Source: Chloroflexota bacterium
Lineage (GTDB): Bacteria > Chloroflexota > Anaerolineae > Anaerolineales > UBA4823
Assembly: GCA_030611505.1 (NCBI GenBank)
Contig: JAUWPO010000002.1
Span: forward strand, 1 to 45,532
Direction: 5' to 3'
DNA: 45,532 bases
Shown: positions 9,020 through 37,267 of the stretch, piece after piece
Layout: each line of letters opens with the position of its first letter
How positions within the stretch are numbered: position 1 is the first letter of the stretch
The notes under the pieces: model-generated
Database searches by the model: none
Told to the model about the DNA's origin: nothing
What the model saw: the letters and a program-made list of their open reading frames with translations, nothing else
Translations under genes and position numbers: made by a program

Positions 9020-9064
9020 CCATTAAATGCTCATTCCAACCATTAATATTAAGCCGAGGTCAAA

Positions 9065-9826: not shown

Positions 9827-9828
9827 AA

Positions 9829-9857
9829 CAAAAAAAGCCGCGCTTTTTATACGCGGC
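9829..9857 (-). terminator. Rho-independent terminator of the sigma-factor operon
   Basis: On the minus strand: GCCGCG stem, 9-nt loop, CGCGGC stem, then T7. Lies 34 nt past the stop of the 9891-10235 gene. Confidence 0.55.
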
Positions 9858-9890
9858 CTGCAAAACTCTGATTTGTTATCAAGTTTTGTA

Positions 9891-10235
9891 TCAGATAGAC
9901 AATACGCCTGTTTGTGTCGCTGAGACCTGCTTTTTATTTACTTGAGTATTAATTTGACGTAAGATTTTAAAAGTGCCTAAAATAGTCACTATGGCACGTA
10001 TACTTGTTACCAGTATTAATACTCCGCTAAATAAACCCGCGCTCACTAGCATGCTTGATTTAAGCATACCAGGTAAAGCTATTTTCCATCTCGGATATCT
10101 CAATAAGCGTTTTTTCAAATCAACCACAAAATCCGTAGTTGGAACAACCGGCTGGAGAATTTCTCGCAGATTAGATTCAAGTTCTTGAAAATTGTATTGA
10201 ATGGGAATTACGTTGTACCCTTGTTTAGGTTCCAT
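9891..10235 (-). CDS. Single-pass membrane protein co-transcribed with the ECF sigma factor (possible anti-sigma/accessory)
   Basis: 114 aa. Starts 3 nt after the sigma-factor stop. One TM segment (SSMLVSAGLFSGVLILVTSI). No zf-HC2 motif seen. Confidence 0.45.
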   Translation of the reverse strand: MEPKQGYNVIPIQYNFQELESNLREILQPVVPTTDFVVDLKKRLLRYPRWKIALPGMLKSSMLVSAGLFSGVLILVTSIRAIVTILGTFKILRQINTQVNKKQVSATQTGVLSI

Positions 10236-10238
10236 ATA

Positions 10239-10826
10239 TCAATATTCCTTTTTTCCATCATTATCAGTGATATTGATCGTAGGCTCATTGACCATCTCTT
10301 CTCGCATCACAAGCAATGTCCTGTGATATAAACTTTTTATCGCTCCTTCTGTTCGTCCCATCACTCGACCTATTTCCGCATTTGATAAGTGTTCGACAAA
10401 TTTCAAGATCAATAACTGCTGCCTTTCTGGAGGTAAACGACGGATTTCAAGTAACAACCGTTCTTGTTCCTCAGATTTTAATATTTCATGTTCGGGGTGA
10501 TCATATTGCCGAGGCCTAAATACATCATCATCTAACGGGAATTCTTTCCGCCGGCTGTTGTCTCGATACCAATTTGCCACCAGATTATGCGCAATTCTGT
10601 ATAGCCACGCTGAAAATGGCAGTCCTCTATCGTTGTAATTACCTATATGACGAAGAGCTCGATAAAAAACTCGCTCAGTTAGATCTTCTGCATCCGAAGT
10701 ATTGCCAGTCCGATAGTATATATAGTTATAGATGCGTCCAACGTGGTGCTCATAAAGAGCGCCAAAAGCTTCTCGATCTCCATGAGTTGCGCGCTCAAGT
10801 AGTTTATCTTCGCTGAGCTGCGTCAC
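10239..10826 (-). CDS. ECF-type RNA polymerase sigma-70 family factor
   Basis: 195 aa. Region 2 (GDREAFGALYEHH...IYNYIYYRTGN..DAEDLTERVF) and region 4 (LPPERQQLLILKFVEHLSNAEIGRVMGRTEGAIKSLYHR) signatures. Confidence 0.85.
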   Translation of the reverse strand: MTQLSEDKLLERATHGDREAFGALYEHHVGRIYNYIYYRTGNTSDAEDLTERVFYRALRHIGNYNDRGLPFSAWLYRIAHNLVANWYRDNSRRKEFPLDDDVFRPRQYDHPEHEILKSEEQERLLLEIRRLPPERQQLLILKFVEHLSNAEIGRVMGRTEGAIKSLYHRTLLVMREEMVNEPTINITDNDGKKEY

Positions 10827-15218: not shown

Positions 15219-16541
15219 TTATTCATGAACACTCAGTCCATATCTTCGCCAAGGGTGTTTAGCTGCTGGTTTACTTGATGTATGCGTTTTAGGCATCTGA
15301 ACCGGCTTTTCCTTGACCATCTCCGGGATGGAGGTATCCTGTCCGGGGGCAGGTGCGAATTTCGTGACACGTAGGGGTTGATCCATGGCTGACTCAAAGG
15401 TAACCAGGCTATCTCCCTGATAGCGCACTTCCAGCTTTCCATCCAGATGCTGCAGAACGTCCACTTTTGCTTTGGCATAGCTTCTGCGCTTTGGACCAGG
15501 CGGGATTTGCAAGCAGTGACCATCAAACGAGATGGTGTTGTCGTTGGTGACCATCCGGGAGTGCTTGCCGCAGAAATAATCTTCCGTCCGATACTCCTTG
15601 GGCCAGGGCACATAAACCGTCCCTTGCTCAGCTGGCTCCACCTGAAAGCGAAAATTGTGTTTTGGCAGAAAATAATCCAGTACCTGATTGGCTTCTTCAC
15701 AGTTACATGCTTCAGCTTCCCGCAATGCTTTTACTAACCGGTCTTGAAATGTATCCCACAACCGTTCAATGCGACCTTTGGCCTGCGCACTACGCGCAGG
15801 GATCAGTTCAATCCCTAGTTCTCCTAATAGCCGCCCAAACTGGCTTCTGGGCTGCTCGCCAACCAGTTCTTGTTCAATCGTCGCCTGCTTCGGGCTCTGG
15901 AATATCGTGTGGCGGTCAGCGTATATCGCTCCTGGAATGCCGTATCTCAAGCAGATCTCCTGCAAGCCCATAAAGTACCCGCACGCATCTTCCTCTTCCC
16001 GGAATGCAGCGCCCATCACTTCGTTCGTTGCATCATCTATGTAGGCGATTAAAGTTACCCAAGGCCCTCGCCCTTCCAGCCAGTCGTGCCGGCTGCCATC
16101 CGTCTGCAACAACATCCCAGCTTTTGGCTTGCGCTCTCTACGACTACGATGTCGTGGCGGTCGGCGTTTACGGGGACTTCCTTGCCCAGCCTGCCTGCGT
16201 ATGCGCCGTACTGTTGAACGTGATACTTTCAGTCCATGCTTTTCAGCTAATACCTCGGTCAAGTGGCTGTCGTTATAGTCTGTATACCGATCTTTGGCTA
16301 ATTTTAGGATCTCGCCTCGAATTTCTTCATCGATGCAGTTGTTGGGTTTCCGTCCACGGTTGCCGTGCACCAGTCCTGGGGCTCCTTGTTCCCGGTACCT
16401 GGCTATCAACCGCCGGATTTGCCGGATCGACAGACCTACTAGTTCACCAGCTTGCCCTGCTGTCATCTGCTGGCTTTCTATTTGCTGCATGATGTGCAGT
16501 CGTTTAATTTCGTCCATGCTGAATGTCACTCTTTCTCTCAT
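15219..16541 (-). CDS. IS transposase (N-terminal HTH plus integrase-core DDE domain)
   Basis: 440 aa. LSIRQIRRLIARYREQGAPGLVHGNRGRKPNN HTH region. DDE-like residues in QTDGSRHDW, IYADRHTIF, AKGRIERLW. Confidence 0.85.
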   Translation of the reverse strand: MRERVTFSMDEIKRLHIMQQIESQQMTAGQAGELVGLSIRQIRRLIARYREQGAPGLVHGNRGRKPNNCIDEEIRGEILKLAKDRYTDYNDSHLTEVLAEKHGLKVSRSTVRRIRRQAGQGSPRKRRPPRHRSRRERKPKAGMLLQTDGSRHDWLEGRGPWVTLIAYIDDATNEVMGAAFREEEDACGYFMGLQEICLRYGIPGAIYADRHTIFQSPKQATIEQELVGEQPRSQFGRLLGELGIELIPARSAQAKGRIERLWDTFQDRLVKALREAEACNCEEANQVLDYFLPKHNFRFQVEPAEQGTVYVPWPKEYRTEDYFCGKHSRMVTNDNTISFDGHCLQIPPGPKRRSYAKAKVDVLQHLDGKLEVRYQGDSLVTFESAMDQPLRVTKFAPAPGQDTSIPEMVKEKPVQMPKTHTSSKPAAKHPWRRYGLSVHE

Positions 16542-21989: not shown

Positions 21990-22060
21990 CAAACGCAGGA
22001 AAGAATTCATTGCCTAGTTACAAAGTTCACGATACACTATGAATGGGAAGTGAGGTACAA

Positions 22061-22429
22061 ATGACTGCTGTAAAAATAATCGCTTACATAGCTGCAGCTA
22101 TCTTGATTTTCTTTGGTGTGCTGTTTATCTGGGGTGCTTTCAGTCCTCAAGGCTCAACAGGATGGATTCCGATTGGATTAATCAGTGTGGGGATCGGGTT
22201 TGTCTTGATATGGTTCGCAAGCCGTAGAAAACCTGCGGTAGAACAGACTGATTCTAGTGTAACATTGAATATAGATCTGCCAGGTAATGTCGATTTAGAT
22301 GCTTTTAAATGCCAATCATGCGGGGGCGCATTGACAACCGACAATATTAAGATGGTCGCAGGAGCACCGGTCGTAAGCTGCCCCTACTGCAGTACCACTT
22401 ATCAGTTAACTGAAGACCCAAAATGGTGA
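22061..22429 (+). CDS. Two-TM membrane protein with a C-terminal CX2C...CX2C zinc ribbon
   Basis: ATG 22061 lies 6 nt after GTGAGG. Two hydrophobic helices, then SRRK, then CQSCGG...CPYCST. Confidence 0.6.
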   Translation: MTAVKIIAYIAAAILIFFGVLFIWGAFSPQGSTGWIPIGLISVGIGFVLIWFASRRKPAVEQTDSSVTLNIDLPGNVDLDAFKCQSCGGALTTDNIKMVAGAPVVSCPYCSTTYQLTEDPKW

Positions 22430-22503: not shown

Positions 22504-24177
22504 GTGAAAAAAGTATTTCTCAGTTTATTTTTGTTATTCCTCCTGCTGGTGACTCCAGTTAATACTCTTGCGGTTACCTATTACTTCAGCCTCGACAGTA
22601 TGGATGTCCACGTTTTTATAAACGAAAATGGGACATATTCAATTGATTATTTGTTCTTCTTTTCAAACGATCCATCAGCGTCACCAATCGATTTTGTGGA
22701 TGTCGGGCTTCCTAATTCCAATTTTGACGTAAACAAAATATCAGCCGAAGTAAATGGGAAATCCATTACCGATATTTCTAAAAGCGATTACCAGGGTTCT
22801 GGTGTTGGTGTGGCGTTGGCTCTTAGAGGGGATGCAATCCAACCCGGTGAAACTGGTCAAGTTCACGTTTTTATTGATGGTGTAGATCGTGTAGTTCATC
22901 CAGACAGCCAAGACGACAATTATGCCAGCGCTGTATTTGGTACAACTTTCTTCGGTTCCCAATTTGTTACAGGCACAACCGATATATCGGTAACGTTTCA
23001 CTTACCACCAGGAGTACAACCCGAAGAACCACGCTGGCACTCAGCTCCTGACGGTTTCCCAGTCGAACCCGAAACTGGGATAGATGAACAGGGACGTGTA
23101 ACCTACACATGGAGAAACCCCCAAGCACTCGGATATAAACAATATGAATTCGGCGCTTCTTTTCCAGGGCAGTATATCCCGGCTGAATCAGTGGTGCGTA
23201 CAAGCATCTGGGGGTTTTTGGGCACCTTCACTGAGGCCCTTTGCCCCAATGTTATTTGTTGCGGTGGTATTGCTTTCGCATTGTTAGGGATATTCACGGC
23301 ATATCGCAGCACGCAAAAGCGAAAGCTTCATTACTTGCCGCCAAAAATCGCAATAGAAGGTCATGGCATCAAAAGAGGTCTGACGGCGGTAGAAGCTGCT
23401 ATTCTGCTTGAACAGCCAATGGACAAGATAATGACCATGATCTTGTTCTCCACAATAAAAAAAGGCGCTGCAACGGTAATAGAACGCGAACCACTCGAGA
23501 TTGATGTTACAGACCCACTTCCAGAAGGACTGCATGCTTATGAGACCAAGTTTCTTAACGCCATGCAAGAAAAAAGATCAGCCGCCCGTCGTAAAGATTT
23601 GCAGGAAGCCATGATTGATCTGATCAACAGTGTCTCCAAGAAGATGAAGGGTTTCAGCCGGCCTGAGACAGTGGATTACTACCGCGACATCACCAAGCGA
23701 GCATGGGCTCAAGTCGAGGCCGCCGAAACTCCGGAAGTGAAAAGCGAGAAATTTGATGAAAACATGGATTGGACGATGCTGGATGAAGATTACGAAGACC
23801 GCACTCGAGATGTATTTCGCACTGGACCGGTATTTGTCCCTATGTGGTGGCCTCGCTACGATCCGAATTATCGAGGCAGTGTCACATCAGCAAGCCCAAA
23901 ACCCGTTTCAACAACTTCACATTTACCAACCGGTACAGGAATGTCGCTTCCCCAGCTCCCAGGTTCAGCGTTTGCAGCCTCGGTTGTAACTGGTGTCCAG
24001 AATTTTTCAAGCGATGTGATCGGTAATGTAACCAATTTCACCAACGGCGTTACCCAAAAAACGAATCCCGTCCCAGTATCAAAAAGTGGCCGCGGTGGAG
24101 GTAGTTCTGGGGGTGGATGTGCTTGCGCATGTGCCTGCGCTGGCTGCGCCTGTGCCTGTGCTGGAGGAGGAAGGTAA
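22504..24177 (+). CDS. DUF2207-like single-pass membrane protein with a Gly-rich / Cys-Ala repeat C-terminal tail
   Basis: GTG 22504 lies 5 nt after GGAGGG. Features in order:
- signal peptide KKVFLSLFLLFLLLVTPVNTLA;
- about 220-aa ectodomain;
- TM segment VICCGGIAFALLGIFTAY followed by RSTQKRK;
- GLTAVEAAILL...STIKKGAATVIE segment like the DUF2207 cytoplasmic region;
- C-terminus GRGGGSSGGGCACACACAGCACACAGGGR. Confidence 0.7.
   Translation: MKKVFLSLFLLFLLLVTPVNTLAVTYYFSLDSMDVHVFINENGTYSIDYLFFFSNDPSASPIDFVDVGLPNSNFDVNKISAEVNGKSITDISKSDYQGSGVGVALALRGDAIQPGETGQVHVFIDGVDRVVHPDSQDDNYASAVFGTTFFGSQFVTGTTDISVTFHLPPGVQPEEPRWHSAPDGFPVEPETGIDEQGRVTYTWRNPQALGYKQYEFGASFPGQYIPAESVVRTSIWGFLGTFTEALCPNVICCGGIAFALLGIFTAYRSTQKRKLHYLPPKIAIEGHGIKRGLTAVEAAILLEQPMDKIMTMILFSTIKKGAATVIEREPLEIDVTDPLPEGLHAYETKFLNAMQEKRSAARRKDLQEAMIDLINSVSKKMKGFSRPETVDYYRDITKRAWAQVEAAETPEVKSEKFDENMDWTMLDEDYEDRTRDVFRTGPVFVPMWWPRYDPNYRGSVTSASPKPVSTTSHLPTGTGMSLPQLPGSAFAASVVTGVQNFSSDVIGNVTNFTNGVTQKTNPVPVSKSGRGGGSSGGGCACACACAGCACACAGGGR
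24118..24162 (+). other. Coding Cys-Ala repeat (CACACACAGCACACA, 7 Cys in 15 residues)
   Basis: Reads tgt gct tgc gca tgt gcc tgc gct ggc tgc gcc tgt gcc tgt gct. Codon usage is mixed, so this is not a simple DNA microsatellite. Confidence 0.9.
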
Positions 24178-24258
24178 ATACAGTTTCTATAATCTTGTTG
24201 ATATTTGTTGCTAACTAACGTCAATGATAAACAATATTACCATGTACTGACCGCTAAA

Positions 24259-25614
24259 ATGAGTATAAAGAATTTTCTCAACACTCTAAAAACCACGATT
24301 AACAGTTCTCAGTTCGATAACCCCACCCCTGGTTTATATCACTATGAACGCCAGACGGTCGGCGAGAAAAGCCGCATTCACCTGCGTATCGACGAAGACG
24401 GAAGTGGTTTGTTATTAGTAAATGCAAGTCGGGTAATGCATCTCAATCCGACGGCTGCTTTTATGTCATATTTAACATTAGGTGAATTCCCGACAGAACA
24501 GGCTGTGCGAGCCTTAAACAGCCGTTACAAAATTACTTCTCATCAAGCGAAGTACGACTATACGCATCTTGTTGAGCAGATTAATGAATTGATCCGTCCA
24601 GACAGCGTTTGTCCCATTCATGATCTGGATTTGGTGATAACCCCACCTTTCAGCATAAAACCGTCTGCCCCATACCGCATGGACCTGGCGCTAACTTATC
24701 GCTGCAATAACGATTGTCCCCATTGCTATAACGCCCGTCCAAGAAACTTTCCTGAAATGTCTACCGGAGACTGGGAAGTGGTGCTCGATCATCTCTGGCA
24801 GATCAGTATACCTCACGTTGTCTTCACGGGAGGAGAACCAACACTAAGAAAAGATCTTTGTGAATTAATACGCCACGCCGAAAATAATGGTCAAATTACA
24901 GGAATTAACACCAACGGCAGACGGCTTAGTGACCCTGAATATGTAAACAAATTAGTCCATGCTGGATTGGATCATGTACAGATCACGCTTGAATCACACG
25001 ATGAAAACGTTCACGATAATATGGTTCACTCGCACGGAGCCTGGGCGCAAACTGTATCAGGCATCCGGAACGCTTTGGATAGTCCACTCTTCGTCATGAC
25101 GAACTCAACGATGCTGAAGGAGAACATTCCGTTCTTAGAAGAAACTTTGGAATTCCTGGCTTCGCTCGGTGTCCCTACGGTCGGATTGAACGCTCTAATC
25201 TATTCTGGTCGCGGGGCAACTGTCGGAACAGGGATAGATGAAAAAGAGCTACAGCCATTGTTGGAAATCGCCCGGGAAATAACAGAGAAAAATAACCAGA
25301 GATTGATCTGGTATACACCTACCCAGTATTGCAATTTTGACCCTATGCAGTTGGAATTGGGCGTTAAAGGATGTACAGCAGCCTTGTATAACATGTGCAT
25401 CGAACCCGATGGAGGCGTACTCCCCTGCCAGTCATACTACCAACCTTTAGGTAATATTATCCAGGACTCGTGGGATTCAATTTGGAATCACGAACTTGCA
25501 ATTTCTCTCCGCGAGCGAAGATACATTCCGGATAAGTGCTCTGATTGTATATTATTATCCGAATGTGGTGGCGGCTGTCCGTTATACTCAAAATATGCTG
25601 ACGATGCTCAATGA
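24259..25614 (+). CDS. Radical SAM/SPASM enzyme with an N-terminal PqqD/RRE-like domain
   Basis: CX3CX2C = CNNDCPHC (nt 24703-24726). FTGGEPTL. SPASM CX12GX4C ... CX2CX5CX3C (nt 25372-25578). The N-terminal domain has the LLLVNASRVMHLNPTAAFMSYL pattern. The start is ATG 24259, or TTG 24205 as in the track. Confidence 0.85.
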   Translation: MSIKNFLNTLKTTINSSQFDNPTPGLYHYERQTVGEKSRIHLRIDEDGSGLLLVNASRVMHLNPTAAFMSYLTLGEFPTEQAVRALNSRYKITSHQAKYDYTHLVEQINELIRPDSVCPIHDLDLVITPPFSIKPSAPYRMDLALTYRCNNDCPHCYNARPRNFPEMSTGDWEVVLDHLWQISIPHVVFTGGEPTLRKDLCELIRHAENNGQITGINTNGRRLSDPEYVNKLVHAGLDHVQITLESHDENVHDNMVHSHGAWAQTVSGIRNALDSPLFVMTNSTMLKENIPFLEETLEFLASLGVPTVGLNALIYSGRGATVGTGIDEKELQPLLEIAREITEKNNQRLIWYTPTQYCNFDPMQLELGVKGCTAALYNMCIEPDGGVLPCQSYYQPLGNIIQDSWDSIWNHELAISLRERRYIPDKCSDCILLSECGGGCPLYSKYADDAQ

Positions 25615-25679: not shown

Positions 25680-26831
25680 ATGTCTATGACTAGTAAAATG
25701 AATTCGCTTCGTCGTTTGTTCACGCCAATAAAACCAATCCCTTCTGGAATCTATCATTATATATCCCCTCCAGATGATCCGCGCAATTACCGCATGCACC
25801 TGCGACTCGAACCGGAAGGAAATGGTGTTCTGATCATCAACGCCAGCACTATACTCCACTTGAATCAGACTGCTGCCGAATATGCTTACTACCTGGTAAA
25901 AAATGAACCCGTCGAACAAGCTGCTCACAAAATGGTTGAACGTTATCATGTCGACCTAGAACAGGCAATTAATGATTACCAGGAGTTTGTAGATCGAATA
26001 CAAACACTTATAAATACTCCAGACCTCGATCCGGTCACTTTCCTGGATTTAGATCGTATCCGTCCTTTCACCGGACATATAACAGCACCTTATCGCCTTG
26101 ATTGCGCACTGACTTACCGTATACCCGAAAGGACAACAGAAACTGCTCTTATTAAACGTGTGGATAGGGAGCTAGACACGATTGAATGGAAATCTGTATT
26201 TGATAAAGCATGGTCAGCCGGCATCCCACATATTATCTTCACCGGTGGAGAACCGACTTTGCGCGATGATTTGCCTGAGCTCATCGCTCACGCCGAATCC
26301 AACGATCAGGTGACTGGTCTGATCAGCGATGGGCTGCGTCTATCTGAACGTGATTACCTGGATTCGCTGCTCCAAACTGGTTTGGATCATTTAATGATCA
26401 TCTTCCAACCAGATAATGAAGCCGCCTGGGATGCTTTGGAAAATTCCCTTGTGGAAGATTTATTTGTAGCAGTCCATCTTACTCTCGATGATAAAAACAA
26501 AGACGAGCTGGCTGGTTTGATTGATCAACTGGCTGAAAGGGGTGTAAAAGCCATATCGCTGAGCGCCCATGATCAAAGCTTGTATGGTGTTTTGGAAAAG
26601 CTTCGTAGTCAGGTTGCCGATTTAACACTTGAACTTGTATGGAACTTACCAGTACCTTATTCTACGTTCAATCCGGTCGATCTAGAAACTGAACTAATAG
26701 AACAGATTGAAGGCGAAGGTAGAGCCTGGTTGTATGTCGAACCTGATGGTGATGTTCTTCCCGCCCAAGGGGTAAACCGTGTCCTGGGCAACATTCTCAG
26801 CGATAATTGGGATCATATCTGGAAAGGGTGA
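25680..26831 (+). CDS. Cysteine-less paralog of the adjacent radical SAM enzyme (predicted unable to bind Fe-S clusters)
   Basis: 383 aa, alignable along its length with 24259-25614 (same N-terminal domain, APYRLD.ALTYR, FTGGEPTLRDDL, GLDH, EPDGDVLP). IPERTTET replaces CNNDCPHC. LPAQ replaces LPCQ. It ends before the CX2CX5CX3C block and has only one Cys in total. Confidence 0.75.
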   Translation: MSMTSKMNSLRRLFTPIKPIPSGIYHYISPPDDPRNYRMHLRLEPEGNGVLIINASTILHLNQTAAEYAYYLVKNEPVEQAAHKMVERYHVDLEQAINDYQEFVDRIQTLINTPDLDPVTFLDLDRIRPFTGHITAPYRLDCALTYRIPERTTETALIKRVDRELDTIEWKSVFDKAWSAGIPHIIFTGGEPTLRDDLPELIAHAESNDQVTGLISDGLRLSERDYLDSLLQTGLDHLMIIFQPDNEAAWDALENSLVEDLFVAVHLTLDDKNKDELAGLIDQLAERGVKAISLSAHDQSLYGVLEKLRSQVADLTLELVWNLPVPYSTFNPVDLETELIEQIEGEGRAWLYVEPDGDVLPAQGVNRVLGNILSDNWDHIWKG

Positions 26832-27633
26832 CCCTGCCTTGCCGCTTTCCCCTCTAGAATGGCACAATCGTTTTGTCCTGCAAGCGCGTTGGACGAGGAA
26901 AATCCGCACCTATATATTTAAACGAGCGAGAGTATTGCACAATAACCGCATACTAGAGATTGGCTGCGGCACAGGTGCAATTATTAATGAAACAATTCCT
27001 ATGATTGGGGGATATAACAATCAAAACATTGGCAAAGATAGCTATGCGCATATCTTTGGTCTTGATTTGAATATTAATTATCTTTTACTGGCTTCGAACC
27101 TTGTCCCCGTGGCTAAACTCACTCAAGGTGATGCTCACACCCTTCCCTATCCTCGTGATTGTTTTGACCTCACCATCTGCCACTTCTTACTGCTTTGGGT
27201 AACGCACCCAGAAGTCGTTGTCACCGAAATGGCGCGCGTTACCGCGCCTGGTGGCGCTGTTTTCATTTTAGCAGAACCGGATTACGGGGGACGGATCGAT
27301 TACCCGCTGGAATTAGGACAGCTCGGAATTTGGCAGCATGAAGCGCTGAAAAGTCAGGGAGCTGAGCCTAATTTGGGTCGCCAATTAGCATCTATCCTAA
27401 ATAAAGCTGGACTAAAAAATATTGAAGTAGGTGTTCTCGGGGGGCAGTGGAAAGGTAAACCAGAAAAAGATGAGTTGGAATCTGAATGGATGGTACTGCT
27501 TTCGGATCTGCAGAATTATGTTCCCCTGGAAAGGCTTGAACAACTGCAAAAAATTGATGCTAACGCTTGGAAAAGAGGTGAGCGCATTTTATACGTCCCC
27601 ACTTTTTACGGGTGGGGGCGTGTTCCTGAGTGA
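26779..27633 (+). CDS. Class I SAM-dependent methyltransferase
   Basis: GTG 26779 lies 6 nt after AAGGGG. Motif I ILEIGCGTGAIINE, motif post-I FGLDLN, CFDLTICHFLL. Overlaps the upstream gene by 53 nt. Confidence 0.8.
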   Translation: MSWATFSAIIGIISGKGDPALPLSPLEWHNRFVLQARWTRKIRTYIFKRARVLHNNRILEIGCGTGAIINETIPMIGGYNNQNIGKDSYAHIFGLDLNINYLLLASNLVPVAKLTQGDAHTLPYPRDCFDLTICHFLLLWVTHPEVVVTEMARVTAPGGAVFILAEPDYGGRIDYPLELGQLGIWQHEALKSQGAEPNLGRQLASILNKAGLKNIEVGVLGGQWKGKPEKDELESEWMVLLSDLQNYVPLERLEQLQKIDANAWKRGERILYVPTFYGWGRVPE

Positions 27634-27635: not shown

Positions 27636-27986
27636 TTAATCCCCAATAGGAAAACCTACTTCAACCCGGTTATCCACAACTCGTGTTGGATAAGCTGGAA
27701 TGTCGACAATCGCTGGCAGCGAGAGCGCTTTTCCTGAACTGATTTCAAACCGCGCCCCATGGCGTGGACAGATGATCTTATCACCATCTAACTCACCATC
27801 CCCCAATGGTCCATCATCATGACTGCATAAATCGGCAATCGCAAATAACCTTCCAGCAACGTTAAAAAGGACAATTGCCAACTCATCTACTTCAATATAT
27901 AAACGATCACCTTCAACGATCTCGTCAACGGATGCAACAGGAACAAATTCGCATTCTTTTGGATTGATCTTGGTATAGTCGTACAT
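27636..27986 (-). CDS. Rieske [2Fe-2S] ferredoxin-like protein of the suf operon
   Basis: 116 aa with CSHDDGPL and CPRHGARF Rieske motifs. Confidence 0.85.
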   Translation of the reverse strand: MYDYTKINPKECEFVPVASVDEIVEGDRLYIEVDELAIVLFNVAGRLFAIADLCSHDDGPLGDGELDGDKIICPRHGARFEISSGKALSLPAIVDIPAYPTRVVDNRVEVGFPIGD

Positions 27987-28033
27987 TTCACATCCTTTCG
28001 GAAAAACCCCCTCTTCTGCGGGAGTTCAGCGCC

Positions 28034-28429
28034 TCATTCTACAAGATCATCGCTTGCTTCACCCAGCCCGTATACACCCGCTTTAAGAACCTTAAGCGAA
28101 AGAAGCGCACATTTTAAGCGTACCGGACCTAATTCAATACCTAACATCTCCAGGATATCTTCTTTTGTCAAGGCTTTCACCTCGTCGATTGTTTTCCCTT
28201 GGATTGATTCCATCAAAAGGTCAGCAGAAGCCAGCGAAATTGCACAGCCATGACCATCAAATACAGCTTCGTTTACCCGCCCATCTTCGCCTACACGGAG
28301 ATCAATGCGGATGTGATCCCCGCATAACGGATTATCGTCCTCAAATGATATATCGTGAGGATCTAAAGTGCCTTGATTAAGCGGGTTTTTATAACGATCA
28401 ATTATGATTTCTCTGTAAAAATCGTCCAT
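28034..28429 (-). CDS. sufU: SUF-type Fe-S scaffold / sulfur acceptor (NifU N-terminal family)
   Basis: 131 aa. YREIIIDRYKNPLNQG, NPLCGD and GHGCAIS motifs. Confidence 0.85.
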   Translation of the reverse strand: MDDFYREIIIDRYKNPLNQGTLDPHDISFEDDNPLCGDHIRIDLRVGEDGRVNEAVFDGHGCAISLASADLLMESIQGKTIDEVKALTKEDILEMLGIELGPVRLKCALLSLKVLKAGVYGLGEASDDLVE

Positions 28430-28486
28430 ATTGCTCTGGAATTATCCTTTCAGGTTGATGCATGGCTTGAACTTAATTCTAAACAA

Positions 28487-29740
28487 CTATAGCCCAAATA
28501 TTTCTAAAACCGAATAAAGGGATTTCACTAAATGATCGACTTCTTCACGTGTATTGTAGAGATAGAAACTTGCGCGGGCTGTTGCCGGCAGGTTGAACTT
28601 TTCGTGTAGCGGCATCGCGCAGTGATGACCAGCACGTATGGCAATCCCCTCTCCGTCAAGGATTTGAGATATATCATGTGGATGTATGCCTTTCATTGAG
28701 AAGGAGAATATAGCTCCTTTTCGATCCGCCTCGGGACCAAAAACACTAACGCCGGGAACTTCTTCTAAACGCTCCAACGCATAGGATGCGATCTCATGTT
28801 CGTGATTCAAAATTTTTTCCATCCCAATTGAGTCTAGGTATTTCACAGCTGATCCGAGACCAATAGCCTCGGCTATGGCCGGAGTACCCGCTTCAAATTT
28901 ATAAGGGATTTCGTTCGTTACGAAAGATCGCAATTCCACGCGTTTTATCATATCGCCGCCGCCCAAGAAAGGTGGCATCGATTCCAAAAATTCTTTTCGT
29001 CCGTACAGTACCCCAATCCCGCTTGGTCCACACATCTTGTGACCAGAGAATGCCAGGAAATCCGTATCCAAATCCTGGACGTTGACGGGCAAATGCGGAA
29101 CTGATTGCGCACCATCAACCACCGTTAATGCACCAGCCTGGTGAGCAAGCCGGATGATTCCTTTTGCTGGGTTGATAGTTCCGAGCACGTTTGACATGTG
29201 AGTGAACCCAACCAACCGGGGTTTCAGTTCAAGCAGCTCCTCAAAAACCTCTAGATCCAGCAACCCATCAGGAGTAACGGGGATAAATTCGAGGCGCAAA
29301 TCCCTCTCCGACGCTAGAATTTGCCACGGTACGAGGTTGGAATGGTGCTCCATTTCAGTCAATATAATCAGATCACCCGGATATAAATTTGCTCTACCCC
29401 AGGAAAATGCCACCAGGTTTATTGATTCGGTCGCGTTCCGTGTAAAAATAATTTGTTTCGGGGACGGTGCTCCGATAAATTCGGCAATTCTTCCTCGAGC
29501 TTCCTCATATTTCGCGGTTGCTTCCTCAGCAATAGTATGGATTCCTCGGTGAATATTCGAATTATATTGACGATAGAAATCGTCCATCGCCTCAATAACA
29601 GCAAAAGGTTTCTGACTGGTGGCCGCGTTATCCAAATAGACTAATGGTACGCCGGGCTTCACTTGCCTGCTCAGAATCGGAAAATCAGCCCGGATTCGGG
29701 TCGTATCTAAACTTCCTTGATGGATTGTATTCAATACCAT
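28487..29740 (-). CDS. sufS: Cysteine desulfurase, SufS type
   Basis: 417 aa. PLP lysine in FSGHKMCGPSGIG and catalytic Cys in RAGHHCAMP. Confidence 0.9.
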   Translation of the reverse strand: MVLNTIHQGSLDTTRIRADFPILSRQVKPGVPLVYLDNAATSQKPFAVIEAMDDFYRQYNSNIHRGIHTIAEEATAKYEEARGRIAEFIGAPSPKQIIFTRNATESINLVAFSWGRANLYPGDLIILTEMEHHSNLVPWQILASERDLRLEFIPVTPDGLLDLEVFEELLELKPRLVGFTHMSNVLGTINPAKGIIRLAHQAGALTVVDGAQSVPHLPVNVQDLDTDFLAFSGHKMCGPSGIGVLYGRKEFLESMPPFLGGGDMIKRVELRSFVTNEIPYKFEAGTPAIAEAIGLGSAVKYLDSIGMEKILNHEHEIASYALERLEEVPGVSVFGPEADRKGAIFSFSMKGIHPHDISQILDGEGIAIRAGHHCAMPLHEKFNLPATARASFYLYNTREEVDHLVKSLYSVLEIFGL

Positions 29741-29776
29741 TTCAATACTCAGAATCGAGGAGCCATATTTTTTATA

Positions 29777-30133
29777 TTAGTTGGTCTTTGCTGAACGAGA
29801 TCGAGAACTACGCCGGCGACGTATTGGACGGCGCAATTTCTGTGAGTCCTTAGGACACCACAATACACGATCAGGTATCATCCAACCATCCGTTAGATAT
29901 ACGTTTTCTCGAAATTGGACAGCGATTATTTTTAGATCCACCTGTACGACGGTACCTTCCAGCCAGTCACGCACCCTATCTCCGTTCTTTTCGTGATCAC
30001 AGAACACTTCCACTCGATCACCAACCTTGTACGGTTCATCAAGATTGGGATCGTTTGTAAAATATAATCCTGACAAGATTGTCTCCTTATTATAAATTTC
30101 AAAAAAGCCAAAGGCGAGGAGTTCTCTCACCAC
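29777..30133 (-). CDS. Hypothetical small protein with an Arg/Ser-rich C-terminal tail
   Basis: 118-aa ORF (GTG start, uncertain) between sufD and sufS. The core YKVGDRVEVF...WLEGTVVQV looks SH3/Tudor-like. Tail RRPIRRRRSSRSRSAKTN. Confidence 0.4.
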   Translation of the reverse strand: MVRELLAFGFFEIYNKETILSGLYFTNDPNLDEPYKVGDRVEVFCDHEKNGDRVRDWLEGTVVQVDLKIIAVQFRENVYLTDGWMIPDRVLWCPKDSQKLRRPIRRRRSSRSRSAKTN

Positions 30134-30287
30134 CTCACCGAGATTTCAGGTTAACCCTCCTTTCTCATATGGCCCACAATTTAATATTCTTTTTTGACAA
30201 GACTTCCTTGGGAAATCCTGACGTTTTTCATTATTTATAAATACGGGTATTCTAGAATTCCTCAAACCATAATTTTAACATCTATTA

Positions 30288-31649
30288 TTACCCCATTTTT
30301 TTAAGAATCTCATCTTGAAAACGGGTCCGGACACCCCCAAAAGGAATGCGTTGCATTATGGGGTCAAAAAAGCCTTCGACAATCAGACGCTCGGCATCCT
30401 TATACGGAATTCCGCGGCTTCTCAAGTAGAAGACCTGATCCGGGTCTATTTTACCAATCGTTGCGCCGTGTGTACAGCGTACATCATCAGCCAATATCTC
30501 TAATCCTGGGATTGAATCAGCACGCGCATTTGAATCTAGTATTAGGTTTCGATTTGCCTGATATCCGTCTGTCTTCTGAGCTCCCGGTGCGACATAGATC
30601 ATACCCTGCCAAACTGAACGGCTGTGTTCGCGAAGCGCTCCTTTAAAAAGCAAATCGCTCATCGTGTTAGGAGCTAGATGGTTTTGCTGGGTATCGTGAT
30701 CGAAATGTTGAACGCCGTCTGTAAAATAAAAGCCGGACATACGTCCAGTTGCTCCCTGACCGATGAGATCAATGTTAGAAAAATTTTTGGTAACATGGCT
30801 TCCTATCGCCCCAAAAATCCAATCCAAATTAGCATCTCGATCTATTCGAGCACGTTCATGACTGAAATTCCACACGTGCTCACCCCATGATTGCAGCTCT
30901 ACAAAACGTAAATTTGCGCCTTGACCCACATAGATTTCTACAAGTCCCGCATGCAATGCTTGTCCATCTTGTTCGTTTGGTGAAGCGGCTTCGTGCAAAT
31001 AAGTTACGGAAGATCCCTCTTCCAACCATACCAGGATGTGAGAGAAAAAAGCCAAGTCCTTACCTGGAGCCCATATTACGCTATGTAAAGGGAGTTCTAC
31101 ATGTATACCTTGGGGGACATATAGGAAAACACCTTTTTGTGACATTGCTGCTGCCAGGGCAGCAAATTTCCCTTCATCCGATTTCACAATCTTACCCATG
31201 ATCAGGGAAAGGAGATCTGGGTGCTGGCGCTCTGCAGTGATTAAATCCGTAAAGATCACACCTTTAGCGGAGATAGTAGAGCTCAGCTCAACTTGTACCT
31301 CCTCATTTGTGAAAACAATCTGACCGCCATGAATATCTCCAACAAGAGGTTCTATTAATTCAGCATCAATGGGAAAAAGCGATTCGGTAGTTAAGTTCTC
31401 CATTGATACCGGAAAAAATTCATCAACCGGCAATCTGCGCAGGTTCGTACGCCGCCACGCTTCCTCGCTGGTTGTCGGAATGGGCAACTTTTCAAATTCG
31501 TCCCAAGCTAGTGAGCGGTATTCCTTTATGAATTCTGGGACATTTCCATTACCAGAGATAGCCTCAACCATCTCACGTGAAAATAAAAAACTTTTCTTCT
31601 GGCGTTTATCAACACGCCGGGCACGTTTTGATACAGTTCGGGTGGACAT
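30288..31649 (-). CDS. sufD: Fe-S cluster assembly protein SufD
   Basis: 453 aa. C-terminal beta-helix region and the FYLRSRGI..AERLIVEGF motif shared with SufB. Position after sufB. Confidence 0.85.
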   Translation of the reverse strand: MSTRTVSKRARRVDKRQKKSFLFSREMVEAISGNGNVPEFIKEYRSLAWDEFEKLPIPTTSEEAWRRTNLRRLPVDEFFPVSMENLTTESLFPIDAELIEPLVGDIHGGQIVFTNEEVQVELSSTISAKGVIFTDLITAERQHPDLLSLIMGKIVKSDEGKFAALAAAMSQKGVFLYVPQGIHVELPLHSVIWAPGKDLAFFSHILVWLEEGSSVTYLHEAASPNEQDGQALHAGLVEIYVGQGANLRFVELQSWGEHVWNFSHERARIDRDANLDWIFGAIGSHVTKNFSNIDLIGQGATGRMSGFYFTDGVQHFDHDTQQNHLAPNTMSDLLFKGALREHSRSVWQGMIYVAPGAQKTDGYQANRNLILDSNARADSIPGLEILADDVRCTHGATIGKIDPDQVFYLRSRGIPYKDAERLIVEGFFDPIMQRIPFGGVRTRFQDEILKKMG

Positions 31650-31650
31650 A

Positions 31651-33054
31651 TTATCCTATAGAACCTTCCATCTGTATTTGAATCAAGCGATTCATTTCAA
31701 TTGCATATTCCATTGGTAATTCTTTAACCAGTGGTTCAATAAAACCGGAAACGACCATCGTAGTTGCTTCTTCCTCGCTGAGTCCGCGGCTCATCAAATA
31801 GAAGAGTTGTTCTTCTCCAACTTTAGAGACAGAAGCTTCATGACCTATTGTGACATCATCCTCGTCAATCTCAATATATGGATATGTATCCGAACGAGAT
31901 GTGTCATCCAGAAGCAGTGCATCACAAACAACATTCGAACGCACATCTTTCGCGCCCTTATATACTTTCAATAAACCTCGATAGGATGATCGTCCGGAAC
32001 CTTTGCTAATTGATTTCGACGTAACCTTACTGCTGGTATGTGGAGCTACGTGAATAACCTTTCCTCCGGCATCCTGATGCTGCCCTTCTCCAGCGAATGC
32101 CATAGAAAGAATTTCGCCATGGGCGCCAGGACCAATCAAGTAGCAAGACGGGTATTTCATAGTCAGCTTTGAACCCAGGTTGGCGTCTACCCACTCCATT
32201 GTAGCACCTTCATGTACTAAGGCACGCTGGGTTACAAGGTTGTACACATTTGTAGACCAGTTTTGAATGGTCGTATAGCGAACTCGGGCTCCTTTTTTGA
32301 CGACAATCTCAATGACGCCGCTATGAAGCGAATCGCTTGAATAAGTTGGCGCCGTACATCCTTCGACATAATGCACTTGCGATCCTTCATCGGCGATGAT
32401 CATAGTTCTTTCAAATTGACCGATATTAGCTACATTCAAGCGGAAATACGCCTGAAGCGGTAGATTGACAGTAACACCTTTGGGAATGTATACAAATGAT
32501 CCACCCGACCAGACAGCACTATTAAGGGCTGCAAATTTATTGTCCTCTATGGGGATAACTGTACTGAAATATTCCCGAAACAAATCAGGGTGCTCTCGCA
32601 ATCCATCTTCAATACTCAGGAATATCACTCCTTGTTCTTCGAGGTGTTCCTGAATCTGATGATAGACCATCTCCGATTCATATTGTGCACCTACTCCAGC
32701 GAGAAATTTTTGCTCAGCTTCTGGGATTCCAAGTTTTTCAAATGTATTCTTGATGGTTTCTGGAACATCGTCCCAACTTTTGCTCTCAGCTTCCGCTGGT
32801 TTGACATAATAGTAAATATTATCCAGGTCTAACTCAGATAAGTCCCCCCCCCAGGTGGGCATCGGGCGTTTTTGAAAATGCTCAAAAGCTTTTAAGCGGA
32901 AATCCAACATCCATTCGGGTTCGCCCTTCATCGCAGATATTTGTTCAACAATTTCGCGATCTAATCCTATTCGGGATTTAAACACGTAAGTCTCAGGATC
33001 TTTGAAACCAAACTGATAATCTCCAATATCTTTTAGTATCTGGGTATCACTCAT
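31651..33054 (-). CDS. sufB: Fe-S cluster assembly protein SufB
   Basis: 467 aa. [19 protein letters not shown] and [13 protein letters not shown] motifs. Confidence 0.9.
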
Positions 33055-33111
33055 AAGAACCTCTAAGGCAATCCTTGACTTTGGTGGTAATGTAACGATA
33101 AGATACTCCGG

Positions 33112-33891
33112 TCATGCTGCAGCGGAACGTTTCCTTTTACGAAGCCAATCATAACCATGCTCTTCCAGGTGAAGCGCTAAGTCTGGGCCACCAGTTTCAA
33201 CTATCTGTCCATCCAGCATGATATGTACATAATCAGGTTTGATATAGTTCAATATCCTCTGATAATGAGTGATCACCAATATACCCAGATCAGGACCTCG
33301 CAATGAATTCACGCCTTCAGCAACAATTCGCAAAGCGTCGATGTCTAAACCAGAATCAGTTTCATCCATCAGACCGATTTCTGGTTGAAGAGCCGCCATT
33401 TGTAATACTTCAGCACGTTTCTTCTCCCCTCCCGAGAATCCTTCATTAAGATAGCGTCCGGCGAAAGAGTGATCCATTTGAAAGAAGTCCATGCGTTCCT
33501 TTAGCATACGTCGAAATTCTGGGATTGATATACCCTTATCATCTGGGTCTTTGGCTCTTCTTTGGGCATTAATCGCTGTTCTTAGGAAGTTTGCTACCGA
33601 TACTCCAGGTATGGCTACCGGATATTGAAATGCCAGGAACAACCCTAAGTGTGACCTTTCGTCAGGTTCTAATTCAAGCAAATCTATTCCCTTAAAGCAG
33701 ACCTCTCCTTCAGTAATTTCATATGAAGGATGCCCCATGAGAGCATAAGCAAGGGTTGATTTTCCCGTACCATTTGGTCCCATCAGAGCATGGACTTCGC
33801 CTTGTTTTACAATTAGATTAACCCCCTTGAGAATCTCGTGACCATCAATGCCTACATGCACATTACGAATATCCAGTTCCGACATAAACAA
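33112..33891 (-). CDS. sufC: Fe-S cluster assembly ATPase SufC
   Basis: 259 aa. GPNGTGKST, FSGGEKKR and GLMDETDSGLD motifs. Confidence 0.9.
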   Translation of the reverse strand: MFMSELDIRNVHVGIDGHEILKGVNLIVKQGEVHALMGPNGTGKSTLAYALMGHPSYEITEGEVCFKGIDLLELEPDERSHLGLFLAFQYPVAIPGVSVANFLRTAINAQRRAKDPDDKGISIPEFRRMLKERMDFFQMDHSFAGRYLNEGFSGGEKKRAEVLQMAALQPEIGLMDETDSGLDIDALRIVAEGVNSLRGPDLGILVITHYQRILNYIKPDYVHIMLDGQIVETGGPDLALHLEEHGYDWLRKRKRSAAA

Positions 33892-35369: not shown

Positions 35370-36179
35370 ATGGAAACCGATCACATCGAATCCTCCAACG
35401 AACCTTCTCACAATGAAGAGGAAAAAGCCCCTTCTAAAAAGGGGGCTATTTATCAATTACAGATTGTTTTTGTTGTCGCATTTGTATTGGCAACACTGTT
35501 CACAGCATGGACTCCTGGTGTGTCTGTTCCGAGCAATGATTGGGAGAACGTCAGCTTCGCCCCTGTACCAACACCCACTCTTGCCGATAATCCAACAAAA
35601 ACACCCAGAACCCGCCCATTAGTGGGAATTGTAGCCGGACATTGGGGCAATGATCCCGGTTCAGTGTGTAATGATGGATTGACTGAAGCAGAAGTTAACT
35701 TGAAAATTGCAACTCTCGTTCAAAAATATCTTTCTGAGCAGGGTTATGATGTCGATCTGCTTAAAGAATTTGACCTACGCTTGAACGGATATGAGGCAAC
35801 GGCTTTAGTATCAATCCACGCCGATTCATGCGATTATATAAATGACCTTGCAACTGGATTTAAAGTTGCTCAGGCTATGGGTAGTAAGCACCCGGAAAGG
35901 GTTGCGCGATTGACCGCCTGCTTGCGTAACAGATACAACCAAATAACTGGAATGCCTCTGCACAGTACCAGCGTTACGGGAGACATGACCAGCTATCACG
36001 CTTTTGGGGAAATAAATGCTAGTACAGCCGCAGTGATAATTGAAACGGGTTTCTTGAATCTAGACCGCCAGTTTTTAACTCAAACTCCAGAATTAGCTGC
36101 TCAGGGTATCGCAGATGGTATTGTGTGTTTCATCAACAACGAAAGCATAACCTCGCCTCTTGAACAACCAACTCCATGA
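35370..36179 (+). CDS. N-acetylmuramoyl-L-alanine amidase (Amidase_3-like) with an N-terminal TM anchor
   Basis: VGIVAGHWGNDPGSVC, AEVNLKIA and ALVSIHADS motifs. One TM segment. Confidence 0.75.
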   Translation: METDHIESSNEPSHNEEEKAPSKKGAIYQLQIVFVVAFVLATLFTAWTPGVSVPSNDWENVSFAPVPTPTLADNPTKTPRTRPLVGIVAGHWGNDPGSVCNDGLTEAEVNLKIATLVQKYLSEQGYDVDLLKEFDLRLNGYEATALVSIHADSCDYINDLATGFKVAQAMGSKHPERVARLTACLRNRYNQITGMPLHSTSVTGDMTSYHAFGEINASTAAVIIETGFLNLDRQFLTQTPELAAQGIADGIVCFINNESITSPLEQPTP

Positions 36180-37267
36180 CCAATCCCTCAGATCCAGTAA
36201 CAAATTCGATTGATCATGCTATCAAAGCGCTGAAGCATGGAGAGCGCCTGGAAGCAAGGCGCTTGGCGGGGAGAGCAGCCCAACTCGCTCCCGAAAGGGA
36301 AGAACCATGGCTTGTGTTGGCTGCAATAGCTCCACCTCGCGCCAGTATAGCCTATCTAAAACGAGCGTTGGAGATAAATCCCGAAAGCCAACATGCTCGT
36401 AAAGGCATGCATTGGGCTATTCAACGGCTGCGTGCCGAAAAACCTAAGCTTCCCCAACATCAGAACGAAGTTATTATTGTTCCATCAACTGCCGCCAAGC
36501 CTGTTAAACACCAAACATCAATTCTCTCTTGGTTGCTGCTAATCTTTATTATCGCTCTTGGCTCCTTCGTTTGGTTTGGTCTTCCCAACATTTCTTTCGC
36601 CATTCCCCAAAAAGAACCTCTAATGGTCGCACAAGTACACATCAAGAAAGCGACCCGCACGCCAACATCCACCTCAACTTTTACACCTACAACCACTTAC
36701 ACCTCAACTCCCACGTCGACACCCACGTTTACCCCTACATCTACGCCCACCTTTACCCCCACACCGACTGCGACAAACACACTCACACCGACTGCAACAA
36801 ACACACCCACAACAACACCTACGAATACTTCAACCCCAACAAATTCTCCGATTGAGGCTCAACAACCAACCAAAGAAGTAAGAACAGTCAAACGCCCAGA
36901 AGGTGTAGGAAAGAATGAGCACTGGATTGATGTGGTTTTATCACGTCAACGTTTGCTTGCTTATCAAGGAAACACGCTTGTCGAAAAATTTGTAGTCTCT
37001 ACAGGCACCTGGCAGTACCCAACTGTTACTGGAAAATTCAACGTTTACGTCAAGTATAAATATGCAAATATGACTGGACCTGGTTATTCCCTGCAAGATG
37101 TCCCCTACGTGATGTATTTCTATAAGGATTACGGGCTGCATGGGACATATTGGCACAACAACTTTGGCACACCCATGAGTCATGGCTGTGTGAATCTACA
37201 GACAAACGATGCAAAATGGTTGTACAACTTCGCATCCGTAGGCACCGTTGTAAGGGTGCGCCGTTAA
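36176..37267 (+). CDS. L,D-transpeptidase (YkuD domain) with a TPR-like N-terminus, a TM segment and a Thr/Pro linker
   Basis: Catalytic motif HGTYWHNNFGTPMSHGCVNL. The start overlaps the amidase stop (ATGA). Confidence 0.8.
   Translation: MTNPSDPVTNSIDHAIKALKHGERLEARRLAGRAAQLAPEREEPWLVLAAIAPPRASIAYLKRALEINPESQHARKGMHWAIQRLRAEKPKLPQHQNEVIIVPSTAAKPVKHQTSILSWLLLIFIIALGSFVWFGLPNISFAIPQKEPLMVAQVHIKKATRTPTSTSTFTPTTTYTSTPTSTPTFTPTSTPTFTPTPTATNTLTPTATNTPTTTPTNTSTPTNSPIEAQQPTKEVRTVKRPEGVGKNEHWIDVVLSRQRLLAYQGNTLVEKFVVSTGTWQYPTVTGKFNVYVKYKYANMTGPGYSLQDVPYVMYFYKDYGLHGTYWHNNFGTPMSHGCVNLQTNDAKWLYNFASVGTVVRVRR
36761..36808 (+). repeat. Tandem 24-bp duplication inside the Thr/Pro-rich linker
   Basis: ACACCGACTGCGACAAACACACTC followed by ACACCGACTGCAACAAACACACCC (22/24 identical), encoding TPTATNTL/TPTATNTP. 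Confidence 0.8.

Follow-up and report, generated by a model that had tools for sequence, protein, structure and literature searches.

The stretch of DNA analysed here (the window) comprises 45,532 nucleotides from a Chloroflexota bacterium of the order Anaerolineales (NCBI GenBank assembly GCA_030611505.1, contig JAUWPO010000002.1, positions 1 to 45,532 of the forward strand), and near its centre lies a gene for a membrane protein whose C-terminus is a regular alternation of cysteine and alanine. The gene for this protein, which we call the tail protein, occupies positions 22504..24177 of the forward strand, begins with a GTG codon, closes with a TAA stop codon (24175-24177) and encodes a predicted single-pass membrane protein of 557 amino acids. 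As an initial annotation of this DNA had reported, seven alternating cysteines stand at the extreme C-terminus: positions 24118..24162 (forward strand) encode exactly CACACACAGCACACA, with GGG before the run and GGGR after it, and the full conserved motif, GGG-(CA)4-G-(CA)3-GGGR, spans 24109..24174 (forward strand) and runs up to the stop codon. Seven of the ten cysteines of the protein fall within its last 19 residues. Ahead of the motif, positions 24031..24108 (forward strand) encode an FTxxVTxKTNPxPV segment and a linker rich in glycine, serine and arginine, the length of which varies as judged from an alignment and from listings of related tails. On the reverse strand, the open reading frame (ORF) at 23868..24224 is no gene; its AQAQAQPAQAH translation is the reverse complement of the Cys-Ala codons, which agrees with the earlier description of this frame as a shadow of the repeat. 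The tail protein most likely starts at GTG 22504, because a GGAGG Shine-Dalgarno sequence lies 6 nt upstream and the nearest homologs (94-96% identical) are also 557 amino acids long. A 573-residue ORF that opens with ATG 22456 is probably too long.

The tail gene is part of a compact gene module. Upstream of it, positions 22043..22429 (forward strand) encode a small zinc-ribbon protein of 128 residues with two transmembrane (TM) segments, a cytoplasmic CxxC...CxxC arrangement and a C-terminus that reads ...YQLTE[ED]PKW. Downstream, positions 24259..25614 (forward strand) encode a radical S-adenosylmethionine (SAM) enzyme of the SPASM type with a PqqD-like N-terminal domain and the sequence CNNDCPHC at residues 149-156, which we propose as a maturase and refer to as rSAM1; both TTG 24205 and ATG 24259 are possible start codons. 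Then follow a catalytically dead paralog, rSAM2 (25680..26831, forward strand), which is a pseudo-radical-SAM protein that keeps the PqqD domain and the barrel and lacks both CxxxCxxC and the SPASM cysteines, and a class I SAM-dependent methyltransferase (Methyltransf_11/25; 26779..27633, forward strand), which is a frequent accessory in the bacterial module. The true start of the methyltransferase is probably downstream of GTG 26779, because the ORF that begins there overlaps the end of the rSAM2 gene by about 50 nt.

Within a protein family that counts thousands of members, no region is conserved as strongly as the tail, and this conservation is far beyond chance. A search over about 5.8 billion proteins returned more than 4500 homologs of the tail protein, and the best 120 of these, mostly about 60% identical to it, end without exception (120/120) in CACACACAGCACACAGGGR or in the same sequence with one extra CA; the Gly/Ser linker that precedes the tail varies freely among them. 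When the protein was stripped of its tail and searched against 1.84 billion cluster representatives, 803 matches were obtained; essentially every representative of full length, even at identities as low as about 30%, ends in (CA)n-[G/S/VS/DS]-(CA)n-GGGR. The sequences in this search that have no tail are truncated or frameshifted fragments. The initial annotation had allowed that homologs might lack the Cys-Ala tail, which would have marked it as a peculiarity of one strain, and the closest homologs and full-length relatives now speak decisively against this. In an alignment of 35 sequences that are 28-53% identical to the query, seven of the ten invariant columns fall within the last ten residues, and throughout the tail the alanines and glycines are as invariant as the cysteines.

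It is the peptide on which this conservation is exerted. In the window the cysteine codons alternate between tgt and tgc, and alanine is encoded by gct, gca and gcc, from which it had been argued that the repeat is maintained at the protein level; a wider sample upholds this argument. The identical 19-residue tail was found in 77 copies, which are encoded by 77 distinct DNA sequences with a third-position identity of 42% and with all six arginine codons and all three stop codons in use. Because 77 identical tails carry 77 different DNA sequences, selection acts on the tail peptide and DNA slippage is not the cause of the repeat. A pattern search of databases had also been proposed, and it was carried out at the DNA level, where metagenome contigs were scanned with a degenerate pattern for CACACAGGGR followed by a stop codon. 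Among its 127 matches, each with a true stop codon after the motif (127/127), 117 demonstrably belong to the tail-protein family and the other ten are fragments too short to classify; in none of the 127 does the motif stand on any other protein family.

The family divides into three subfamilies that differ in tail sequence, gene order and host. Subfamily A is found in the class Anaerolineae, including cultured strains of Leptolinea (sp. HRD-7), Levilinea (L. saccharolytica), Bellilinea (B. caldifistulae) and Anaerolinea (A. thermophila); its tail is (CA)4-5 G (CA)3 GGGR and its gene order is zinc ribbon, tail protein, rSAM/SPASM, dead paralog and methyltransferase. Subfamily B, with the tail (CA)2-3 G (CA)4 GGGR and the order zinc ribbon, rSAM/SPASM, dead paralog, tail protein and methyltransferase, occurs in metagenome-assembled genomes (MAGs) of Deltaproteobacteria, Armatimonadota, Pirellulales, Promineifilaceae and Anaerolineales, where the taxa are labels taken from MAG names. 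Subfamily C, from Bathyarchaeia, carries ten cysteines in C[AV]CACA-x-CAC[AV]CAC-VS-CACACA-[SG]GG[VA]G, and its genes are arranged as zinc ribbon, tail protein and rSAM/SPASM; some of these archaeal members have a short basic extension beyond the motif. Common to all three is CxCxCxC-xx-CACACA-[GS]GG at or very near the C-terminus. The cysteines are distributed around the central break as 4+3 in Anaerolineae, as 3+4 or 2+4 in subfamily B and as 3+4+3 in Bathyarchaeia, and the number of CA units varies from two to five before the central glycine and from three to four after it. In some genomes tail-bearing paralogs stand in tandem, for example at positions 6252-10331 of locus L002 (554 and 776 amino acids) and also at L096, L102, L105, L126 and L157, and both tandem copies retain the tail. 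Forms of about 770 amino acids align with the query along two separate stretches, a sign that their N-terminal domain may be duplicated.

The association of the tail with its neighbouring genes was assessed by counting over loci from 80 reference genomes. The zinc-ribbon gene lies directly 5' of the tail gene at 74 of 75 loci, and the rSAM/SPASM gene lies directly 3' of it at 62 of 68, with the dead paralog in that place at five more. Both rSAM genes are present at 52 of 58 loci, and so is the methyltransferase (52/58). An independent metagenome sample gave a similar picture, with the rSAM/SPASM gene directly downstream in 64 of 79 cases and most of the others rearranged or within 2 kb. In subfamily B all five components are true homologs of those in the window despite their other order (45%, 26%, 28%, 29% and 35% identity), and the methyltransferase gene directly follows the tail gene. 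In Bathyarchaeia the zinc ribbon, the tail protein and the rSAM/SPASM enzyme are intact at 3 of 3 loci, which are flanked by genes for Alba, aEF-1alpha, TBP, S25e and ERCC4. The module thus retains its content even where it shares none of its flanking genes. The contigs of three distant members (P0214, P0143 and P0260) are too short to show neighbours. The tail and the rSAM/SPASM gene are therefore genetically associated, and because the content of the module survives both shuffling of its order and divergence at the level of domains of life, gene-context conservation provides strong evidence that the module is a functional unit. The zinc-ribbon protein is a core partner in it. Its own C-terminus is strongly conserved: in bacteria and archaea alike it closes with PKW (86 of 88 copies), in the commonest form as ...YQLTEEPKW, and this TEEPKW end is possibly a docking element or a second substrate.

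Several other neighbours were considered as parts of the module and set aside. The phosphate (pst/phoU) and SUF/NifU/Rieske genes that flank the cassette in the window are kept only in close relatives (PhoU at 5 of 67 loci and NifU at 5 of 58). A link with lipid biosynthesis was considered from genes for a CDP-alcohol phosphatidyltransferase, an acyltransferase and a PAP2 protein between the rSAM genes of L002, an arrangement present at only about 4 of 85 loci, and a Band_7/zinc-ribbon gene near two distant loci appears at no other locus. Directly after the cassette, on the reverse strand, the window holds genes for a Rieske ferredoxin, NifU/IscU and cysteine desulfurase (27636-33891; window ORFs were scanned to 29740), and the matching region of a close relative (L001) continues with SufB/D genes. 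This Fe-S neighbourhood, kept at the 5 of 58 loci mentioned above, is probably coincidental.

A single tail-less homolog with usable gene context offers a natural experiment on the association. This homolog (P0248; L089, positions 1059-2958, a low-GC sequence of 502 amino acids) lacks the whole C-terminal region together with the tail, its zinc-ribbon partner ends in IPKDNVNW rather than TEEPKW, and no rSAM gene lies within 1.8 kb downstream on its single short contig. This case fits a model in which tail and rSAM enzyme belong together, although it is one case on a short contig. A second tail-less homolog (P0265, at L088) was rejected as unreliable, as its contig is 1.8 kb long and has a suspicious end. 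At about positions 1775-1825 the end of this contig translates to ...HTSELQSPYDLVCR; this element recurs widely at the ends of contigs, and its presence suggests that the assembly is chimeric or repeat-terminated.

The predicted architecture of the tail protein would place the tail where a cytoplasmic enzyme could reach it. Hydropathy analysis gives a signal-peptide-like N-terminus and one TM helix at about residues 245-267, which is followed by the basic sequence YRSTQKRK in a positive-inside pattern. In the AF2 (AlphaFold2) model, which has a mean predicted local distance difference test (pLDDT) score of 85, residues 28-221 fold with confidence as a beta-sandwich, after which come a long TM helix and a C-terminal domain made of helices, and in the same model the linker and the tail are disordered (pLDDT below 50), which suggests that the tail is accessible. 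We predict that the beta-sandwich is extracytoplasmic and that the helical domain is cytoplasmic. Because aligned relatives appear, in the 35-sequence alignment, to have either one or about three hydrophobic segments at the TM position, the C-terminus would lie on the same side in each, and for all of them we predict a cytoplasmic C-terminal half, tail included. The conserved FTxxVTxKTNPxPV segment might serve as a recognition sequence, with the linker as a spacer. Searches for structural relatives with Foldseek recognised only the generic N-terminal domain, which resembles ribophorin I/OST1 and the N-terminal domain of M1 aminopeptidase (TM-score about 0.25). The tail protein matches no Pfam or NCBIfam model, and sequence searches of the PDB gave no match for the tail and none for the family profile.

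The adjoining enzyme is of the peptide-modifying type. Its Pfam matches are to Radical_SAM (9e-26) and SPASM (2e-10), and in a PDB sequence search the best match was SkfB, a sactionine synthase (5e-19), with further matches to PqqE, BlsE, SuiB and CteB, so that its nearest relatives of known structure are enzymes that mature peptides, and their kin. The CxxxCxxC motif is present in 69 of 71 orthologs of the active enzyme, eight cysteines are conserved in the SPASM region, and a further conserved cysteine (Cys118) stands ahead of the radical SAM motif. No NCBIfam model reaches its cut-off with rSAM1 (the best is NirJ2, at 128.6 bits versus 500), and the protein lies far below the cut-offs of all 25 NCBIfam families among the matches listed, such as NirJ2, PqqE, AhbD, SkfB, MftC, HxsC and ScmE. 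Its paralog rSAM2 is 35% identical to it over the full length, with N-terminal domains that align, but has one cysteine in total, and CxxxCxxC is found in none of 66 rSAM2 orthologs. Nor does rSAM2 reach any NCBIfam model (TIGR04347 gives 49 versus 525 bits). The tail protein, its tail and both rSAM proteins are thus covered by no curated family model.

Given these observations, we lean towards the view that the Cys-Ala tail is the core of a protein-tethered system resembling those of peptides that are synthesised ribosomally and modified post-translationally (RiPPs), in which it would be the substrate of the rSAM/SPASM enzyme and most likely be cross-linked by thioethers. That the enzyme acts on the tail in some manner is, in our estimation, somewhat better than an even proposition. 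Thioether cross-linking is the single most likely chemistry for such an action, and we put it forward only tentatively. A role as a substrate for thioether formation was among the functions first suggested for the motif, and it has gained support from the adjoining PqqD-like/radical-SAM/SPASM gene, whose pairing with the tail is kept across phyla and domains of life; the chemistry itself is inferred. Thioether-forming SPASM enzymes act on Cys-rich peptides (PMC8172795, PMC10177961), their auxiliary cluster 1 has three cysteine ligands and binds the substrate cysteine at the iron site left open (PMC10177961), and alanine is known as a sactionine acceptor in thuricin CD Trn-beta and RumC1 (PMC8172795).

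In the mechanism that we propose, the 557-residue protein would sit in the membrane such that its N-terminal beta-sandwich faces outwards and its C-terminal half extends into the cytoplasm, where the flexible Gly/Ser linker would offer the tail to the adjoining enzyme. The enzyme would then modify the tail by means of 5'-deoxyadenosyl radical chemistry and its auxiliary Fe-S clusters, and the products would be intramolecular thioether bridges from cysteine sulfur to carbon, of the sactionine or ranthionine type, with alanine or glycine as acceptors. A floppy, thiol-rich tail might in this way become a rigid, cross-linked cap that is retained on the protein. In bacteria, the dead paralog with its PqqD domain would probably act as a non-catalytic scaffold or chaperone that has retained the ability to bind peptides, and the methyltransferase may be an accessory tailoring enzyme responsible for further modification. 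The zinc-ribbon protein with its TEEPKW end would be an obligate partner, either for docking or as the second substrate. In its layout, a conserved segment joined through a Gly/Ser linker of variable length to an invariant core, the protein recalls the leader, spacer and core of RiPP precursors. It is a more speculative step, and one that we consider possible rather than probable, to see in these loci an unrecognised class of ‘tethered RiPP’ in which an invariant (Cys-Ala)n tail is converted in place to a ladder of Cys-Ala thioethers, to a D/L-alternating segment or to a link with TEEPKW. Such a system would be shared by anaerobic Chloroflexota, other bacterial phyla and Bathyarchaeia, probably as a result of horizontal transfer.

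A number of points weigh against this proposal. The modification of the tail is itself a reading of sequence and gene context. The PqqD match of the active enzyme (E 0.0012, 19.6 bits) falls below the Pfam threshold of 23.4 bits, and only the dead paralog passes it (27.1 bits). Thioether chemistry by direct ligation is not specifically indicated, because eight rather than seven cysteines are conserved in the SPASM region. The varying number of CA units argues against one fixed cross-strand pairing, and we have set aside a model in which the two Cys-Ala runs pair as a fixed beta-hairpin, given that the repeat number on each side differs between subfamilies. Across the loci examined the module has no conserved protease or transporter, and with neither a protease nor an exporter present the system is not a classical RiPP. 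The invariant TEEPKW end of the zinc-ribbon protein offers an alternative or additional substrate. Finally, at the archaeal loci no dead paralog adjoins the module, and a methyltransferase stands close by at a single locus out of three; neither is conserved there, and we therefore propose that both are accessory.

The strongest competing explanation, although one that we regard as unlikely, is that the tail is a metal or Fe-S site, with its CxCxCxC pattern serving as metallothionein-like or cluster ligands, and that the rSAM enzyme acts elsewhere, on TEEPKW or on a non-protein substrate, or receives clusters or sulfur from the tail. On an extended strand, seven to ten cysteines spaced at i, i+2 would all point to the same side, the partner protein bears a zinc ribbon, and its invariant C-terminal motif could be the real rSAM substrate. 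The cassette also adjoins SUF, NifU, cysteine desulfurase and Rieske genes in the window and in close relatives, but this neighbourhood is lost from most loci (as the 5 of 58 count indicates) and from the archaeal ones. Metal-storage tails, such as the His- or Cys-rich tails of chaperones, usually vary in length and sequence, whereas the invariance of alanine and glycine here is more in keeping with recognition by an enzyme, or with tight packing, than with simple chelation. A further point against this explanation is that the rSAM enzyme, which carries a PqqD-like domain, belongs to the peptide-maturase type.

Less probable again is that the enzyme acts on the tail by another chemistry, such as alternate epimerisation to give D and L residues, conversion of cysteine to formylglycine, formation of C-C cross-links, or cross-linking of the tail to TEEPKW. 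The strict two-residue periodicity recalls proteusins, in which radical SAM epimerases carry out alternating epimerisation, but the invariance of the cysteines themselves suggests a chemistry of thiols. The conservation of eight SPASM cysteines suggests that both auxiliary clusters are fully ligated, as they are in anSME, and leave no open site; against these alternatives, the anSME target motif (C/S-x-P/A-x-R) is not in the tail. The extra conserved Cys118 and the presence of two PqqD-bearing paralogs, each of which could hold one of the two partner tails, likewise count for another chemistry, yet nothing favours any single one of these alternatives.

It is very improbable that the tail serves as a signal for membrane insertion, sorting or lipidation by S-acylation. 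C-terminal sorting signals that contain cysteine do exist, and CACACACAGCACACA has a mean hydropathy of about 2 (Kyte-Doolittle, calculated by hand) with a basic terminal residue. However, the segment is invariant, has only 15 residues and lacks the leucine, valine and isoleucine that are typical of sorting-signal helices, the preceding domain is predicted to be cytoplasmic and therefore on the wrong side, and some archaeal members have residues beyond the motif. Neither a sorting enzyme (sortase, exosortase or rhombosortase) nor an acyltransferase belongs to the conserved module, and the lipidation site that had been listed among the first suggestions gained no support. Nothing was found in favour of the idea that the tail is a functionless quirk of one strain, an error of sequencing or a product of DNA slippage. 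This idea can be dismissed as refuted, given that the tail recurs in thousands of genomes and metagenomes whose assemblies are independent of one another and that its synonymous codons are randomised.

Other features of the window lie apart from this module. On the forward strand, positions 1806-6834 encode an HdrA/MvhD-like flavoprotein with several 4Fe-4S domains followed by the small and large subunits of a NiFe-hydrogenase, a set of genes that fits an anaerobic lifestyle. A 440-residue, transposase-like ORF with N-terminal HTH_28/32/29/23 domains (15219-16541, reverse strand) stands between a DNA ligase gene and the pst operon. Opposite an L,D-transpeptidase gene (36176-37267, forward strand), positions 36770-36817 of the reverse strand yield a short Cys-rich translation (CCCGCVCC...CECVCR) in a frame that is probably non-coding.

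Comparison with known systems places the module near several of them without matching any one. In sactipeptide and ranthipeptide (SCIFF) systems, such as those of SkfB, AlbA, CteB and PapB, the gene for a CxxxCxxC-SPASM enzyme with a PqqD-like recognition domain lies beside a Cys-rich target, and here too the gene for a CxxxCxxC-SPASM enzyme, with a putative recognition domain of this kind, adjoins a Cys-rich target (62/68 genome, 64/79 metagenome and 3/3 archaeal loci). Unlike in those systems, the target is the C-terminus of a 557-residue membrane protein rather than a short leader-core peptide, and the core is a strict Cys-Ala alternation in which the only possible acceptors are alanine and glycine. 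CteB, PapB and Tte1186 have seven SPASM cysteines, which leave an open iron site for the substrate thiolate (PMC10177961). The enzymes described here differ from this CteB type in conserving eight. The ACGX-repeat peptide family is an example of the Cys-repeat precursors modelled in NCBIfam, and neither bacterial nor archaeal tail segments gave a relevant match to the NCBIfam precursor-peptide models even at E<=10.

In quinohemoprotein amine dehydrogenase, the subunit QhpC is small and soluble and has Cys-to-Asp/Glu bridges but no Cys-Ala repeat. Together with its enzyme QhpD it nevertheless provides a precedent, in that an rSAM/SPASM enzyme cross-links cysteines in a protein that retains the modification as a structural or cofactor element. 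QhpD is mentioned in the literature as a thioether-installing rSAM/SPASM enzyme (PMC8172795). For the dead paralog, there are parallels in pseudo-SAM/SPASM proteins (TIGR04347) and in the partners PqqD and MftB, which consist only of a RiPP recognition element (RRE): a cluster-less protein of the rSAM fold with a PqqD domain stands beside an active enzyme. Unlike TIGR04347, it is a recent paralog of its active neighbour, as the 35% identity between the two indicates.

The initial annotation had compared the tail protein with DUF2207, and this comparison stands for the overall plan and not for membership of the family. DUF2207 proteins (PF09972/PF20990) have a large extracytoplasmic N-terminal domain, one or more TM segments and an intracellular C-terminal part with a Gly/Ser-rich stretch (PMC10457818), which is the topology predicted here. 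However, the window protein matches no DUF2207 model even at E<=10, only 2 of 35 family members match DUF2207_C (best E 2e-4) and 1 of 35 matches DUF2207 (E 0.38), and one archaeal homolog has a precomputed PF09972 match. Neither an invariant Cys-Ala tail nor an rSAM module has been described for DUF2207, and the relationship appears to be remote at best.

Other comparisons are more distant. Metallothioneins are small soluble proteins of variable sequence; the tail shares their Cys-x-Cys runs but, unlike them, has invariant spacer residues and is tied to an rSAM enzyme. The anSME enzymes recognise (C/S)-x-(P/A)-x-R in sulfatases, whereas the tail ends in CACAGGGR with no C-x-A-x-R and the tail protein has no sulfatase domain. 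As a 15-residue Cys/Ala segment behind a domain predicted to be cytoplasmic, the tail does not agree with signals of the PEP-CTERM, GlyGly-CTERM and MYXO-CTERM type, and the conserved module has no sortase-like gene. Full-text searches of one literature library with the motifs and related concepts found no description of the tail motif or of the system. Overall, the system would work like rSAM/SPASM peptide maturation while departing from the classical RiPP features of a short precursor, a protease and an exporter, and we think it possible, if far from assured, that its product and logic are new enough to define a new class.

The value of this comparison lies in what it sets apart. The rSAM/SPASM enzymes are a major source of new peptide chemistry, and nearly all of their known substrates are short secreted precursors. 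Here the substrate appears to be the terminus of a large membrane protein, its motif is made of cysteine, alanine and glycine alone and is conserved above the rest of the protein in several bacterial phyla and one archaeal lineage, and it is accompanied by an obligate zinc-ribbon partner and, in bacteria, by a catalytically dead paralog. If the tail is modified, the system would offer cross-link chemistry that is possibly new, in a compact form that is easy to test because only two types of acceptor residue come into question. For the hypothetical membrane proteins of this large family, which abounds in the Anaerolineae and Bathyarchaeia of sediments, sludge and the subsurface, such a modification would also open a first way to their function, and it would represent a rare case in which maturation of the RiPP type builds a permanent feature of a cellular protein.

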